Origin: Escherichia phage vB_EcoM-RPN226
Length of the DNA: 64,000 nucleotides
Sequence record: OL770073.2
Strand: one strand, 5' to 3'
In this document: positions 12,711-17,372 of the stretch, in pieces
Layout of the letters: the number at the start of each line of letters is the position of its first letter
How positions within the stretch are numbered: position 1 is the stretch's first letter
Program-made: the position numbers and the translations under genes
The notes under the pieces: model-generated
Database searches by the model: none
What the model was told of the DNA's origin: nothing
The model's input: the letters and a program-made list of their open reading frames with translations, nothing else

Positions 12711-13451
12711 ATGATTAACGATTATATGACAGTTGAAGAAATCCGTCTTGATTTGGGTCTTGCATTAAAGGAAAAAGATTTCGTAATTGATAAAACCGGG
12801 GTTAAAACTATTGAAATTATTGGTGCATCATTTGTAGCAGATGAACCTTTTATTTTTGGCGCTCTTAATGATGAATACATTCAACGTGAACTTGAATGGT
12901 ATAAGTCTCAAAGTTTGTTTGTTAAAGATATTCCAGGTGAAACACCAAAGATTTGGCAGCAGGTAGCATCTTCTAAAGGCGAAATTAACTCGAATTATGG
13001 TTGGGCCATCTGGTCAGAAGATAACTATGCCCAGTATGATATGTGTTTAGCTGAACTTGGTCAAAATCCTGATTCTCGACGTGGTATCATGATTTATACT
13101 CGTCCATCCATGCAGTTTGACTACAATAAAGATGGCATGTCAGATTTCATGTGTACTAATACAGTACAGTACCTGATTCGTGATAAGAAAATTAATGCAG
13201 TGGTTAATATGAGAAGCAATGACTGCTGGGCAGGCTATCGTAATGATTATGCGTGGCAAAAATACGTACTAGATAAATTAGTATCTGATTTGAATGCAGG
13301 CGACCCATCACGACAGTATAAAGCAGGTTCTATTATATGGAATGTTGGAAGTCTTCATGTGTACGAAAATCAGTTTTATTTGGTTGACCATTGGTGGAAC
13401 ACCGGTGAAACCCATATTGCTAAAAAGGATTATACTGGAAAATGGAAGTAA
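12711..13451 (+). CDS. 42: dCMP hydroxymethylase gp42
   Basis: 246 aa, thymidylate-synthase-like fold; matches T4 gp42. Confidence 0.95.
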   Translation: MINDYMTVEEIRLDLGLALKEKDFVIDKTGVKTIEIIGASFVADEPFIFGALNDEYIQRELEWYKSQSLFVKDIPGETPKIWQQVASSKGEINSNYGWAIWSEDNYAQYDMCLAELGQNPDSRRGIMIYTRPSMQFDYNKDGMSDFMCTNTVQYLIRDKKINAVVNMRSNDCWAGYRNDYAWQKYVLDKLVSDLNAGDPSRQYKAGSIIWNVGSLHVYENQFYLVDHWWNTGETHIAKKDYTGKWK

Positions 13452-14083
13452 ATGCGCCACATGTTTATAAGTATAAACATCCTAAAACTAAAAAGTGGTA
13501 TATAGGAAGTCATGATGGTCACAACCCGAATTATGATGGTTCGGGTGTAGTTTGGCAACATGCTAAAAAGAAATATGGAATAAAATCCTTTAATAAAGAA
13601 ATATTATATGAAGGACCAATGTTTAGACAGGTTGAAGAAATTATTTTAACTTGTTTAGATGCTGCTAATTGTCCAGATTCATATAATTTAAAGAATGAAG
13701 CATGGGGAGGAAGTTTTCCAGGCAAATTAAATGGAATGTACGGTAAAAAACTATCTCCAGAAGAAAGATATAAGTGCGGAAATGCCTTTCGTGGAATCAA
13801 GCGTCCTGATCATTCTAAAAGAATGAAAGGCGAAGGTAATCCAATGTATGGTAAAAATGAGCAGGCATATGGAATTATAAATCGAGCAAAGGAAAATTCT
13901 GGTAAAACTTATGAAGAAATTTTTGGCGCAGAAAAAGCTAAAATAATTAAAGAAACGATGTCTAAAAATCGTAAAGGAAAACCTCATAATTTGATAGAAA
14001 AAATATGTCCGCATTGCGGACTAAAAGGACGTGGGCCAAATATGACAAGATACCATTTTGACAAATGTAAGGCACTTAAATGA
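13442..14083 (+). CDS. GIY-YIG homing endonuclease (Seg-like, free-standing)
   Basis: N-terminal VYKYKH...KKWYIGSH (GIY-YIG), basic NUMOD-like repeats, C-terminal CPHCG zinc motif; start overlaps 3' end of gene 42. Confidence 0.6.
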   Translation: MEVNAPHVYKYKHPKTKKWYIGSHDGHNPNYDGSGVVWQHAKKKYGIKSFNKEILYEGPMFRQVEEIILTCLDAANCPDSYNLKNEAWGGSFPGKLNGMYGKKLSPEERYKCGNAFRGIKRPDHSKRMKGEGNPMYGKNEQAYGIINRAKENSGKTYEEIFGAEKAKIIKETMSKNRKGKPHNLIEKICPHCGLKGRGPNMTRYHFDKCKALK

Positions 14084-14922
14084 TTCAATTCGTAATTCCA
14101 AGTTATCAACGCGTAGGGGCAGTTTCTGCCCTTGATATGTTTCCATCTGATTATGAACCTCATATTGTAGTACGTAAACACGAAGAAAAAGCTTATTATG
14201 ATGCTTATGGGTCTAGAGCTAAAATTATAACTATTCCTGATGATGTTAATGGAATTGCTGGTACTCGTAAAGCAATTACTGATATGTATGCAGGCCAACG
14301 AATCTGGATGATTGATGATGATACTACTATTCGTATGAGTTCAATGCGAAAGAAAGATGATCGTCGCTGCGTAGATAAAATTAATCAATTAACTCGTGAA
14401 CAGTTCTATGAATTGATTCAATACGTTGAAGATGCAATGGATTGTGGGTATTATCACGGTCATGCTCGTCTACCTATTTTTAAAATTACTTCATCTTGGG
14501 GTAATTATCGTGAAAATTCATATGGATTCACGAATACCTGGTATGACCTCGGAAAACTTACAACAGAACAAATTGGGTATGGAAAAATTGATTTATGCGA
14601 AGATATGTATGCATTTCTCAATTTAATTAATCAAGGTTATCCGCATTTGGCCTTGTTCAAATATCTGGTTGTGTCTGGAAAAGCACAAGCTCCAGGCGGA
14701 TGTAGTTCAATTCGTAGTAATTCAAAACATAATAGAGCTCTTGAGCAAATCAATAGAGAGTTTCCAGAGCAAGCTCGTTGGAAAACATCGAATATTGAAA
14801 AGAGAAAATCGTTGGGCGAAGAAGACGAGCCATTAAAGGTTCTTCGCATGTGTGTTTCGCGCAAAGAAAAATCAGAAGCGTTTCATAAGTTTAATGCTAT
14901 TCATCCAATAGCAGTCGATTAA
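14080..14922 (+). CDS. GT-A type glycosyltransferase at the beta-gt locus (candidate HMC-DNA glucosyltransferase, not T4 beta-gt)
   Basis: 280 aa; VIPSYQR near N-terminus and WMIDDD (DxD) motif; occupies slot between 42 and uvsX. Confidence 0.45.
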   Translation: MIQFVIPSYQRVGAVSALDMFPSDYEPHIVVRKHEEKAYYDAYGSRAKIITIPDDVNGIAGTRKAITDMYAGQRIWMIDDDTTIRMSSMRKKDDRRCVDKINQLTREQFYELIQYVEDAMDCGYYHGHARLPIFKITSSWGNYRENSYGFTNTWYDLGKLTTEQIGYGKIDLCEDMYAFLNLINQGYPHLALFKYLVVSGKAQAPGGCSSIRSNSKHNRALEQINREFPEQARWKTSNIEKRKSLGEEDEPLKVLRMCVSRKEKSEAFHKFNAIHPIAVD

Positions 14923-14999: not shown

Positions 15000-15929
15000 A
15001 TGTCTATTGCAGATTTAAAATCCCGTTTGATTAAAGCTTCCACTTCTAAAATGACTGCTGAACTGACTACATCTAAATTCTTTAATGAAAAGGATGTAAT
15101 CCGTACAAAAATCCCAATGCTCAATATCGCTATTTCCGGCGCGATTGATGGTGGTATGCAGTCTGGTTTAACTATTTTTGCAGGTCCTTCTAAACACTTT
15201 AAATCAAATATGTCTTTGACTATGGTTGCGGCGTATTTGAACAAATATCCTGACGCGGTTTGTCTATTTTATGATAGCGAATTTGGTATTACTCCAGCTT
15301 ATTTGCGATCCATGGGAGTTGACCCGGAACGAGTAATTCATACGCCAATTCAGTCAGTTGAACAGCTGAAAATTGATATGGTGAATCAGCTTGAAGCTAT
15401 TGAGCGCGGTGAAAAAGTTATTGTATTCATCGACTCAATCGGTAATATGGCTTCTAAGAAAGAAACGGAAGATGCCTTGAATGAAAAATCTGTGGCAGAT
15501 ATGACTCGTGCTAAATCACTGAAGTCATTATTCCGTATTGTTACTCCTTATTTTAGTATTAAAAACATTCCATGTGTTGCGGTTAACCATACAATTGAAA
15601 CAATTGAAATGTTTAGTAAAACCGTGATGACAGGTGGTTGTGTTATTGCTGGTACTAAAATCCAGATGTCCGATGGTTCTACTAAAGCAGTTGAAGATAT
15701 TCGCCCGGGTGAACGTGTTAAAACCATGGTCGGTGATAATGAAGTAACTTATGTTTGGGACCCCGAAACTCTGGCTGAAGGTACTCCTGAATGTTTCGAA
15801 ATTGAATTCGAAGACGGTTATAAAGTAACTACTTCTAATACTCATAAATTTCTGGTAATGGTTAAAGACATTCCAACGTGGGTTGAAGCTAAAGACTTAG
15901 TAGCCGGTATGGATTGTGTTGTAAGGTAA
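15000..15929 (+). CDS. uvsX: UvsX recombinase N-terminal part (213 aa) fused to N-terminal half of a split intein (96 aa)
   Basis: residues 1-213 colinear with T4 UvsX up to KTVMTGG; then CVIAGTKIQMSDGS (Hint block A, Cys1) and TTSNTHKF (block B); stop at 15927. Confidence 0.85.
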   Translation: MSIADLKSRLIKASTSKMTAELTTSKFFNEKDVIRTKIPMLNIAISGAIDGGMQSGLTIFAGPSKHFKSNMSLTMVAAYLNKYPDAVCLFYDSEFGITPAYLRSMGVDPERVIHTPIQSVEQLKIDMVNQLEAIERGEKVIVFIDSIGNMASKKETEDALNEKSVADMTRAKSLKSLFRIVTPYFSIKNIPCVAVNHTIETIEMFSKTVMTGGCVIAGTKIQMSDGSTKAVEDIRPGERVKTMVGDNEVTYVWDPETLAEGTPECFEIEFEDGYKVTTSNTHKFLVMVKDIPTWVEAKDLVAGMDCVVR

Positions 15930-16829
15930 ATAAATATGGATACCGGACTAATGTATATTTTGAGGTATCCATATGAATTTTGTCTACAAAATCGTGTTCA
16001 ACAATAGAATTAAAGAAAACACTCCACCGTTTTACTACATAGGAAGCAAAACGAACGCTTCCTATGTAGATGGTAAGATTATAGATTCCAATGGTCATGA
16101 GTACTATGGTTCATCGAGATATCCCGGATATTATGATTTTATCGATAATGTTACGGTGGAAATACTTGAACAATTCGATGAGATAGAACACGCCGAACTA
16201 TTAGAGCGTGAAAATTTTTATCAGAAACAAGTAAAAGTTAAAACAAATCCAGATTATTTTAATTTGGATTATGCATGCGGACATAATTCATATGCTAATT
16301 CTGATTTTGCGTCGTACAAGCATCATATAACAGGCAAATGTATTCGTCTTGAAAGAAACCATCCTCTTGTTAAATCGGGAGAATATGTTGGCGTCACAAA
16401 AGGCGCGAAATGTTCTGATGCTCATCGTAAGCTCATATCAGAAGCTATTACTGGAGAAAACAACGGTTTCTATGGTAAGAAACATTCTAAAGAAACCCTC
16501 GATATAATAGCAGAAAAGGCAAAGAAAAGATTAAAGCATTCCCATCCTAGACAAAAAGGTGTTATTATAAACGGTATTGAATATCGTGGTGTCCGTCCTG
16601 CTGCAAGAGAACTAGGAATTAATCCTAATACAATTATCCGCAAGATTAAAACTAACACTAAAGGCTGGGCTTATGCGGCACAGTGATATTATTAAACTAG
16701 CTACTACGAAACACAAGGTAAAGTATGAAAATTAAATCTGTTAAATCTGTTGGTAAAAAAGAAGTCTATGATTTGTCTGTTGCTGACGTAGAGCATTATG
16801 TTTTAGAAAATGGTATCGTTACACACAAC
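15639..16829 (+). mobile_element. split intein plus embedded free-standing homing endonuclease gene interrupting uvsX
   Basis: N-intein 15639..15926, HEG 15973..16686, C-intein 16725..16829; exteins rejoin to a 393-aa UvsX. Confidence 0.75.
15973..16686 (+). CDS. GIY-YIG homing endonuclease (free-standing, between the two uvsX pieces)
   Basis: own RBS (TGAGGTA) and ATG, different frame from uvsX; FVYKIVF...PFYYIGSK GIY-YIG motif; NUMOD-like FYGKKHSKETL; C-terminal HTH-like GINPNTIIRKIK. Confidence 0.65.
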   Translation: MNFVYKIVFNNRIKENTPPFYYIGSKTNASYVDGKIIDSNGHEYYGSSRYPGYYDFIDNVTVEILEQFDEIEHAELLERENFYQKQVKVKTNPDYFNLDYACGHNSYANSDFASYKHHITGKCIRLERNHPLVKSGEYVGVTKGAKCSDAHRKLISEAITGENNGFYGKKHSKETLDIIAEKAKKRLKHSHPRQKGVIINGIEYRGVRPAARELGINPNTIIRKIKTNTKGWAYAAQ

Positions 16830-17372
16830 ACAGGCGTAATGTATTCGGCTGATACCGTATTCATTATCGGTAAACGTCAGATTAAAGATGGTTCTGATCT
16901 TCAGGGGTATCAATTTGTTCTAAATGTAGAAAAATCTCGTACCGTTAAAGAAAAAAGTAAATTCTTTATTGATGTTAAATTTGACGGTGGTATCGATCCT
17001 TATTCTGGATTGTTAGATATGGCTCTTGAATTAGGATTTGTAGTAAAACCTAAAAATGGTTGGTATGCTCGTGAATTTCTTGACGAAGAAACCGGTGAGA
17101 TGATTCGCGAAGAAAAATCTTGGCGTGCAAAAGATACCAACTGCACTACATTCTGGGGTCCTTTATTTAAACATCAACCATTCCGAGATGCTATTAAACG
17201 TGCTTATCAGTTAGGTGCTATTGATAGTAATGAAATTGTTGAAGCTGAAGTTGATGAATTGATTAACTCAAAGGTTGAAAAATTTAAATCTCCAGAAAGT
17301 AAAAGTAAATCAGCAGCTGATTTAGAAACTGACCTAGATCAGTTAAGTGATATGGAAGAATTTAATGAATAA
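16725..17372 (+). CDS. uvsX: C-terminal half of split intein (35 aa) fused to UvsX C-terminal part (180 aa)
   Basis: MKIKSVKSVGKKEVYDLSVADVEHYVLENGIVTHN (blocks F/G ending His-Asn) then Thr+1 and TGVMYSADTVFIIGKRQ... colinear with T4 UvsX C-terminus; own RBS. Confidence 0.85.
   Translation: MKIKSVKSVGKKEVYDLSVADVEHYVLENGIVTHNTGVMYSADTVFIIGKRQIKDGSDLQGYQFVLNVEKSRTVKEKSKFFIDVKFDGGIDPYSGLLDMALELGFVVKPKNGWYAREFLDEETGEMIREEKSWRAKDTNCTTFWGPLFKHQPFRDAIKRAYQLGAIDSNEIVEAEVDELINSKVEKFKSPESKSKSAADLETDLDQLSDMEEFNE

Follow-up and report, generated by a model that had tools for sequence, protein, structure and literature searches.

The uvsX recombinase gene of Escherichia phage vB_EcoM-RPN226 is predicted to be a fractured gene with a split intein

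How can a phage obtain an intact UvsX recombinase from a uvsX gene that is encoded as two separately initiated pieces? This question is raised by a locus of Escherichia phage vB_EcoM-RPN226 (sequence record OL770073.2), of which a stretch of 64,000 nucleotides (nt), called the window below, was analyzed. An earlier note, made from the letters of the stretch, had proposed that uvsX is interrupted here by a naturally split intein. We examine this proposal by means of profile and database searches, structure modelling, and comparison with related phages and metagenome contigs. The reading that we favor is that of a 'fractured gene', in which a mini-intein was split by an invading endonuclease gene and its halves very probably still splice in trans to yield intact UvsX.

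The locus consists of three open reading frames (ORFs) on the plus strand, located at 15000-15929 (309 amino acids, aa), 15973-16686 (237 aa) and 16725-17372 (215 aa). The coordinates and sequences that the earlier note had quoted for the two uvsX ORFs are all correct, but in describing a two-ORF locus it overlooked the third ORF, the endonuclease gene at 15973-16686. The first ORF starts with the N-extein (15000-15638), which encodes UvsX residues 1-213, ends in KTVMTGG, matches Pfam RecA and PHROG UvsX-like families, and equals residues 1-213 of the UvsX of phage ime09. It continues into an N-intein (IntN) of 96 aa (15639-15929) with Cys1 and blocks A and B, terminated by a TAA stop codon at 15927-15929. 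Downstream of the endonuclease gene, a spacer (16687-16724) holds the ribosome binding site that the C-piece had been said to possess, AAGG at 16715-16718. The C-piece itself opens with a C-intein (IntC) of 35 aa (16725-16829), containing block F (VYDLSV..EHY) and block G (NGIVTHN) with its His-Asn end, and goes on as the C-extein of 180 aa (16830-17372), which begins with Thr+1 and comprises UvsX residues 214-393 (16830-17369) and the stop codon; Pfam T4_UVSX_C matches this part with E=1.9e-39. The N- and C-piece ORFs share a single frame, which is closed by more than 30 stop codons between the halves, and the intein halves are 795 nt apart in a single locus. A fusion of the three ORFs by read-through or frameshifting was considered and rejected on account of these in-frame stops. 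We are practically certain that the three-part architecture is real.

To join the exteins, ORF 1 was cut after Gly213 and ORF 3 after Asn35, and the outer parts were fused. The resulting protein of 393 aa agrees at 393/393 positions with the UvsX of phage ime09, which has no interruption, and the insertion is therefore codon-precise. At the DNA level, the exteins of the window and ime09 differ at 18 nucleotides, all 18 synonymous. Relative to T4 UvsX (391 aa), 355 of the 393 residues are identical, which is far beyond chance, and the colinearity asserted earlier thus holds.

The evidence that the insert is an intein comes from several directions. The curated NCBIfam model TIGR01443 (intein_Cterm) finds the C-intein with 29.9 bits, against a cut-off of 15.6, while TIGR01445 (intein_Nterm, cut-off 24.5) scores 25.9 bits on the joined intein of 131 aa and 22.9 bits on the whole N-piece ORF. 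Downstream of its RecA domain, the N-piece ORF also gives weak matches to Pfam Hint, Vint and Intein_splicing, and the start of the C-piece covers positions 122-155 of the 155 in Intein_splicing. Searched against the sequences in the PDB, the joined intein matches the Npu DnaE intein with E=7e-6 (4kl5/2keq), the gp41-1 intein over its whole length with E=6e-4, and the Pyrococcus horikoshii (Pho) RadA intein with E-values down to 7.5e-4. Both family models above their cut-offs and the Npu DnaE match support the split intein of the earlier note. The likeness to DnaE-type split inteins that it had remarked on is detectable in sequence, but it reflects general Hint-family likeness, and the best structural match is gp41-1 (see below).

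The class-1 catalytic set is complete, consisting of Cys1, S66-x-x-H69, the block F Asp (VYDLSV) and His (EHY), the penultimate His, the terminal Asn and Thr+1. Cys1 directly follows the GG of the N-extein, the C-intein ends in MKIKSVKSVGKKEVYDLSVADVEHYVLENGIVTHN followed by T, and Thr+1 is the native UvsX residue. Block B is present as the earlier note had it, but in the form S66-N-T-H69, in which Ser replaces the usual Thr of TxxH; this Ser is invariant in the homologues. The split point is at the canonical position between blocks B and F. The IntN strand PECFEIEFEDG is acidic, with a net charge of -5 over residues 47-62, and the start of IntC is basic (MKIKSVKSVGKKE; net +4 over residues 1-13), a polarity as in the DnaE split inteins. 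A hidden Markov model (HMM) of the UvsX-site intein family found no second copy within the window. Taken together, these features support a uvsX gene apparently fractured by a naturally split class-1 intein.

The insertion site corresponds to the bond between Gly211 and Thr212 of T4 UvsX. In a HMMER alignment to E. coli RecA, ...MFSKTVMTGG/TGVMYSA... falls on ...MFGNPETTTGG/NALKFYA... (the slash marks the site). From the RecA and UvsX structures, we take this position to be the C-terminal end of the DNA-binding loop L2. The region is inside the construct that was crystallised for T4 UvsX (3IO5).

We now consider how the arrangement is distributed. The region matches 628 phage records, ca 620 of which have an uninterrupted uvsX and eight the whole cassette; the eight represent six phages (HY03, ELT1, BYEP01, SYGD1, pSe_SNUABM_01 and SP21535). 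Among near-identical Tequatrovirus uvsX genes, the cassette is accordingly either present or precisely absent. A tblastn search with IntN returned 27 records, in 24 of which the match is the UvsX intein; the other three are weak (33-36% identity) and lie in other genes, which code in two Brevundimonas phages for the terminase large subunit and in Vibrio phage GR11A for a hypothetical protein. When a full-length intein-containing UvsX was used as query, UvsX homologues were found in 1,994 records, and the intein was covered in 24, in all of them as two pieces. These 24 records correspond to ca 18 independent isolates from several countries and hosts. The cassette occurs in Tequatrovirus, Tegunavirus (TG1), Bragavirus (PM2 and Pm5461) and Jiangsuvirus (PspYZU05), in Shewanella phage Thanatos-1 and two Vibrio phages, in Salmonella, Klebsiella and Enterobacter phages, and also in metagenome contigs. 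It is found in differing genomic backgrounds, for example with or without a neighboring Seg-like ORF.

In all phages examined, the gene order is UvsX-N with IntN, endonuclease, sometimes an ORF of 55-61 aa, and IntC with UvsX-C. Nine phages from at least six Straboviridae lineages were compared, and their site is always GG/C...HN/T, one metagenome allele having HN/S. IntN has 96-97 aa and IntC always 35 aa in these nine, and there is no variation at Cys1, SxxH, the Asp and His of block F, or the HN end. In both intein halves, as in the exteins, the proportion of nonsynonymous differences is far below that of synonymous ones, with a ratio of the corresponding rates (dN/dS) of 0.02-0.2 (0.02-0.17 for the N-intein) and saturated synonymous sites. 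Related alleles showed no frameshift or premature stop in their extein or intein parts, and no dN/dS value near 1.

In some relatives, the endonuclease is degenerate while the halves are intact. In Yersinia phage TG1 (L009 3345-4299), a frameshift parts the catalytic from the DNA-binding ORF, and the second alone is annotated; in Vibrio phage vB_VmeM-32 (L010 3284-3685), a catalytic fragment of 133 aa is left. Elsewhere the gene has been replaced, by another Seg-like gene in Thanatos-1 and by HNH-type genes in metagenome contigs. Halves that remain intact despite decay of the endonuclease are what is expected if UvsX function needs splicing.

The allele of the window is a new one in its details. 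In a comparison with HY03, the nucleotide identity to the window is 95.5% for IntN and 99% for IntC. Within uvsX, the two diverge strongly over nt 60-441 but far less from that point up to the insertion (junction nt 639/640), the change lying between nt 441 and 576, roughly 60-200 nt upstream of the insertion. This pattern is consistent with a co-conversion tract, and also with ordinary mosaicism.

The alleles also differ just upstream of IntC. Thanatos-1, PM2 and PspYZU05 have a small ORF of 55-61 aa, ending in ..YYI(D/E)..YYQ.QG.V, between the endonuclease and IntC (L008 3933-4100, L012 4114-4296 and L013 4179-4364). In HY03-type alleles it is a remnant interrupted by stop codons (L001 3297-3438), and in the window just its last 10 codons are present (16694-16724). 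A deletion of ca 110 nt has removed from the window allele the small-ORF remnant that precedes IntC elsewhere, sparing the last 31 nt with the ribosome site of the C-piece; this part of the spacer, a remnant of the small upstream ORF, is 100% conserved in an alignment of seven alleles. In PM2 and PspYZU05 the small ORF and the C-piece overlap at ATGA, which suggests translational coupling, and in Thanatos-1 the small ORF stops 14 nt upstream of the C-piece start.

The split uvsX sequences have thus been public. The two pieces and the gene between them are labeled 'DNA repair protein', 'homing endonuclease', 'recombinase', or 'uvsX_1' and 'uvsX_2' in GenBank/RefSeq, none of the 24 records carries an intein annotation, and one mentions a 'conserved domain HintC'. 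In PHROGs, each piece has a family of its own, phrog_8337 and phrog_18112. The earlier note knew of no such arrangement in reference T-even genomes; the arrangement is not unique, being already in GenBank/RefSeq without an intein annotation, for example in HY03 (NC_031047). A full-text literature search, with most subscription journals outside its reach, found no description of a UvsX intein or of an intein in the carrier phages. The sequences appear to have gone unrecognised as an intein, although earlier recognition may have occurred.

An exhaustive search of 1.84 billion representative proteins returned 401 relatives of IntN. Among them are contiguous mini-inteins at the same GG/C...HN/T or S site of UvsX, in metagenome proteins of 477-514 aa (P0044, P0050, P0053, P0067, P0123 and P0148). 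Empty, contiguous and endonuclease-split states are thus all found at one position, and these represent steps I and II of the Dassa model. Another contiguous relative, P0001, shares 53-54% identity with the joined intein of the window, by BLASTP and by alignment, and differs from it by small indels only. An AlphaFold model of P0001, made with the window halves in its alignment, has a Hint fold and a predicted local distance difference test (pLDDT) score of 82. Its best match in the PDB is the gp41-1 intein, with a template modelling (TM) score of 0.76-0.81 and a root-mean-square deviation (rmsd) of 2.5 Å.

On metagenome contig L015 (1257-6486) there is a split uvsX with Ser at +1 and two large ORFs (554 and 500 aa, with an HNH-like motif) between the halves. 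The P0001 ORF (161 aa) comes after this split gene and overlaps the end of uvsX-C. It holds a complete contiguous mini-intein of the same family, orphaned between flanks of 27 aa and 4 aa (..KGG/C...HN/SETI).

We now return to the gene between the halves. The ORF at 15973-16686 is in a different frame from the exteins and has its own Shine-Dalgarno sequence and ATG. It matches Pfam NUMOD3 with E=1.4e-11, with a C-terminal helix-turn-helix in addition, and belongs to the PHROG homing endonuclease families phrog_314 and phrog_7504; with the group I intron endonuclease model TIGR01453 it reaches 54.4 bits, below the cut-off of 56.05. Residues 160-234 match the DNA-binding domain of I-TevI (1i3j, E=7e-4). 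By BLASTP, the ORF is colinear with T4 I-TevI (E=1e-8), its own invariant E80 and N97 corresponding to E75 and N90 of I-TevI. The first 60 residues contain VY...YIG motifs, in which V4-Y5 and Y22-I23-G24 are invariant; this segment is too divergent for the Pfam and PDB searches, for which reason we term the protein I-TevI/Seg-like. From these matches the ORF is assigned as a free-standing gene for a homing endonuclease of I-TevI/Seg-like type, with what appears to be a divergent GIY-YIG-type N-domain. The endonuclease is only 87% identical to the nearest deposited copy, and its dN/dS of 0.13 (window versus the HY03 allele) indicates a maintained gene. It is an integral part of the cassette. 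With a free-standing endonuclease between the halves, the locus is what Dassa et al. 2009 termed a 'fractured gene', rather than a dispersed split gene like that of DnaE.

Upstream of the endonuclease there is an RNA hairpin (15934-15974, plus strand), with a perfect stem of 11 bp, AUAUGGAUACC / GGUAUCCAUAU, and a loop of 19 nt. It pairs part of the endonuclease Shine-Dalgarno sequence (GAGG, 15962-15965) and the AU of the AUG. For the folded stretch of 76 nt that contains it (15915-15990), the minimum free energy is -19.9 kcal/mol, with a z-score of -3.4. In six related Tequatrovirus alleles of HY03 type, an A-to-G change in the 5' arm is compensated by a T-to-C change in the 3' arm, and analogous hairpins occur in PM2, PspYZU05, EniLVp02 and TG1. 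The 5' arm is overlapped by a late-promoter-like box, AATAAATA (15929-15936, plus strand), which matches the T4 late-promoter box TATAAATA at 7/8 positions; in PM2, PspYZU05 and TG1 a perfect TATAAATA lies inside the equivalent hairpin, in its loop. The box AATAAATA may act as a late promoter for the endonuclease. Control of gene-fracturing endonucleases by a hairpin and a late promoter has been described (Dassa et al. 2009; Gibb and Edgell; PMC2677866). A generic scan for sigma-70 promoters and terminators, which does not extend to the middle and late promoters of T4, was uninformative: it gave no terminators, and 5 sites where 10.7 were expected.

On this basis, the following scenario can be proposed. 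An in-frame mini-intein would formerly have resided in uvsX between the equivalents of T4 Gly211 and Thr212, and an I-TevI/Seg-like endonuclease gene would have invaded its loop, at the place where inteins usually hold an endonuclease domain, and thereby split it. Three proteins would now be made from one strand, namely the endonuclease and two precursors, UvsX(1-213)-IntN (96 aa) and IntC (35 aa)-UvsX(214-393). Through the acidic strand of IntN and the basic start of IntC (MKIKSVKSVGKK), the precursors would associate and fold into the Hint domain. Class-1 trans-splicing would then proceed by formation of the Cys1 thioester, attack by Thr+1, cyclisation of Asn131 and an acyl shift, to yield native UvsX of 393 aa with the junction ...MTGG-TGVM... 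We predict with high confidence that trans-splicing at the locus is functional. The hairpin over the ribosome site probably silences the endonuclease on early and middle read-through transcripts, whereas late synthesis would start from the promoter-like box, which truncates the hairpin. The endonuclease would cut the intein-less uvsX of co-infecting phages, and the whole IntN-endonuclease-IntC cassette would be copied in by the recombination-dependent repair of the phage. The timing of endonuclease expression, its cleavage target and homing are all predicted. Mobility has indirect support in the precise presence or absence of the cassette among near-identical uvsX genes, in its differing genomic backgrounds, and in the divergence pattern of HY03.

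A number of points weigh against this scenario. Splicing at the locus is itself a prediction, and the structure model is that of the 54%-identical contiguous relative P0001 rather than of the window's own halves. Thr+1 is rarer than Cys or Ser among characterised split inteins, and Ser in block B is unusual; both are invariant in the family and therefore probably functional. As for the endonuclease, Pfam GIY-YIG (PF01541) was not detected at E<=10, the N-terminal 118 aa found no PDB sequence or profile match, an equivalent of Arg27 of I-TevI is not evident, and hhalign of the N-domain with I-TevI gives a probability of 2.8%. The late-promoter box of the window is an imperfect match, and homing is predicted, mosaic flanks being also expected from ordinary T-even recombination.

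A variant of the trans-splicing mechanism is that splicing is conditional, depending on single-stranded DNA (ssDNA), the redox state or the stage of infection, and so times the appearance of active recombinase. The idea comes from the location of the intein at the end of L2 and from the second split intein that brackets L2 in some phages (see below), and it has a parallel in the archaeal RadA intein, for which ssDNA-stimulated splicing has been reported. We consider it unlikely; if true, a T-even-type phage would control its recombination-dependent replication via protein trans-splicing.

Among the rival explanations, the one that survives best is a UvsX that works in two pieces, the intein halves serving as a non-covalent dimerisation module or the fragments assembling by themselves. 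T4-like phage genes in pieces that work without splicing are known (Friedrich et al. 2007, cited in PMC2677866 and PMC10448857), and such a UvsX would have a parallel in phage Aeh1, where mobE splits NrdA into two working polypeptides; splicing at uvsX is, moreover, predicted from sequence. However, the residues that are invariant across deeply diverged alleles (with Thr or Ser at +1) are those of the splicing chemistry and go beyond what mere association would involve. Furthermore, a Hint domain of 131 aa left at the end of L2 would probably obstruct the contacts between the filament and DNA, so that its removal by splicing is favored over a permanent two-piece UvsX. We judge the unligated form to be quite improbable.

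Trans-splicing to intact UvsX also has to be weighed against a decaying locus, in which uvsX was inactivated by the insertion, its loss was tolerated, and the ORFs are remnants. UvsX is important for T4 without being strictly essential, T4 uvsX mutants being viable, and the word 'essential' in the earlier note was too strong. Some T4-like Acinetobacter phages are without uvsX altogether (PMC4177764). Decay is nevertheless very hard to reconcile with exteins that are 100% identical to an intact UvsX with 18/18 nucleotide differences synonymous, with dN/dS far below 1 in the exteins, both intein halves and the endonuclease, and with an arrangement that persists across genera with saturated synonymous sites, and we give this explanation a very low probability. 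Finally, there is a negligible chance of a sequencing or assembly artefact, or of a contiguous endonuclease-containing intein misread as three ORFs: the former has in its favor the general possibility alone, which the earlier note had raised, and is ruled out because the same three-ORF layout recurs in ca 18 independently sequenced phages (24 records) and in metagenome contigs, while against the latter stand the endonuclease, which is in another frame and has a start and a ribosome site to itself, and the more than 30 extein-frame stops between the halves.

With trans-splicing of a fractured gene as the preferred reading, it is instructive to compare the locus with known systems. The fractured genes of Dassa et al. 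2009 have as hosts gp41, NrdA, NrdJ, IMPDH, DnaE, ligase, terminase and one unknown protein, and UvsX appears there as a neighboring gene only (PMC2677866). Their members gp41-1, gp41-8, NrdJ-1, NrdA-2 and IMPDH-1 (NAR 37:2560) share with the window the order on one strand of N-extein with IntN, a short spacer with hairpin and late promoter, a free-standing endonuclease of GIY-YIG or other type, and IntC with C-extein; half sizes of 88-105 and 33-54 aa, which include the 96 and 35 aa found here; complementary charge at the interface; and a host that is a phage enzyme of DNA metabolism. The differences are that UvsX is outside the eight host types, that the characterised members have Ser or Cys at +1 where the window has Thr, and that the window has Ser instead of Thr in block B. 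In addition, those genes came from ocean metagenome reads, whereas the UvsX cassette is also carried by enterobacterial phages in culture, among them Tequatrovirus on E. coli K-12.

The Npu and Ssp DnaE split inteins are similar in being split between blocks B and F, in their acidic IntN and basic IntC, and in the class-1 residues. They differ in host and site, in Cys at +1, in having ca 25% identity to the window intein, and in that their halves are at distant loci with no endonuclease between. The inteins of Mycobacterium tuberculosis (Mtu) and M. leprae RecA and of Pho RadA are likewise hosted by the recombinase superfamily, in a critical element of the ATPase core, but they are contiguous, with or without an in-frame LAGLIDADG domain, and the Mtu RecA site is further downstream. 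The Pho RadA intein also has Thr+1. In Aeh1 nrdA/mobE and in gene 43 of Aeromonas phage 25 with its GIY-YIG gene, the endonuclease is again controlled by a hairpin and a late promoter; there, in contrast, intein halves are absent and each fragment functions as a polypeptide of its own. T4 SegA, a GIY-YIG endonuclease of the Seg type, is encoded beside uvsX and cleaves within it (PMC2988022). Its gene lies between uvsX and beta-gt and leaves uvsX uninterrupted, and SegA shares 49 identical positions with the window endonuclease in a 219-column alignment.

The split uvsX is thus a further member of the fractured-gene class, and a specialist would not be very surprised by it. What it adds is the setting. 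The class was established on incomplete reads of ocean metagenomes, and work on its split inteins, which include the fastest one known, gp41-1, has been done only outside their natural setting. Here, a fractured gene is found in the recombinase of a genetically tractable coliphage that has hundreds of near-identical, insert-free relatives. This makes it possible to test trans-splicing during infection, with its speed and fitness cost, and mobilisation of the cassette by the endonuclease, as well as the conversion of a mini-intein into a split intein by endonuclease invasion, with the empty, contiguous and split stages at one site. As a compact mesophilic split intein (96 + 35 aa) that has Gly at -1 and Thr at +1, it may in addition serve as a tool.

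Several metagenome sequences have UvsX inteins at further sites. On contig L017 (4346-7747; also L018 and L019), UvsX is in three pieces with two split inteins, in the order UvsX-N with IntN1 (296 aa), endonuclease (256 aa), IntC1 with an extein and IntN2 (142 aa; P0006, P0003), endonuclease (239 aa), and IntC2 with UvsX-C (190 aa). Each of the two split inteins has its own free-standing HNH-type endonuclease gene. The middle extein is only 13 aa long, TQEMYSKTVVSGG, and the two sites correspond to E198/T199 and G211/T212 of T4 UvsX, so that this extein is essentially loop L2. The doubly split form was found in no cultured phage of the collection. The metagenome UvsX homologues P0058, P0033 and P0039 have inteins at yet other sites, one directly after the Walker-A lysine (..GPSRHFK/C...HHN/T..) and another just before the L2 site (..VYADMG/C...THN/S..), sometimes together with the split L2-site intein. 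UvsX looks like a hot spot for inteins, which enter it at four or more points; these, and the 13-aa extein between two split inteins, should be of interest to both the intein and the recombinase fields.

The genes preceding uvsX in the window may be mentioned last. A second Seg-like homing endonuclease ORF of 213 aa (13442-14083, plus strand; phrog_314, E=6e-31; 32% identical to T4 SegA) lies between gene 42, for dCMP hydroxymethylase (12711-13451), and a glucosyltransferase gene, and overlaps both. It is present in HY03, ELT1 and SYGD1 and absent in ime09, BYEP01, pSe_SNUABM_01 and SP21535. The ORF at 14080-14922 (plus strand), upstream of uvsX, matches Pfam TAGT (TET-associated glycosyltransferase) with E=1.7e-9, and in related genomes it is annotated as beta-glucosyl-HMC-alpha-glucosyltransferase; T4 has beta-gt at this place, and the arrangement is ordinary for T2/T6-like phages.

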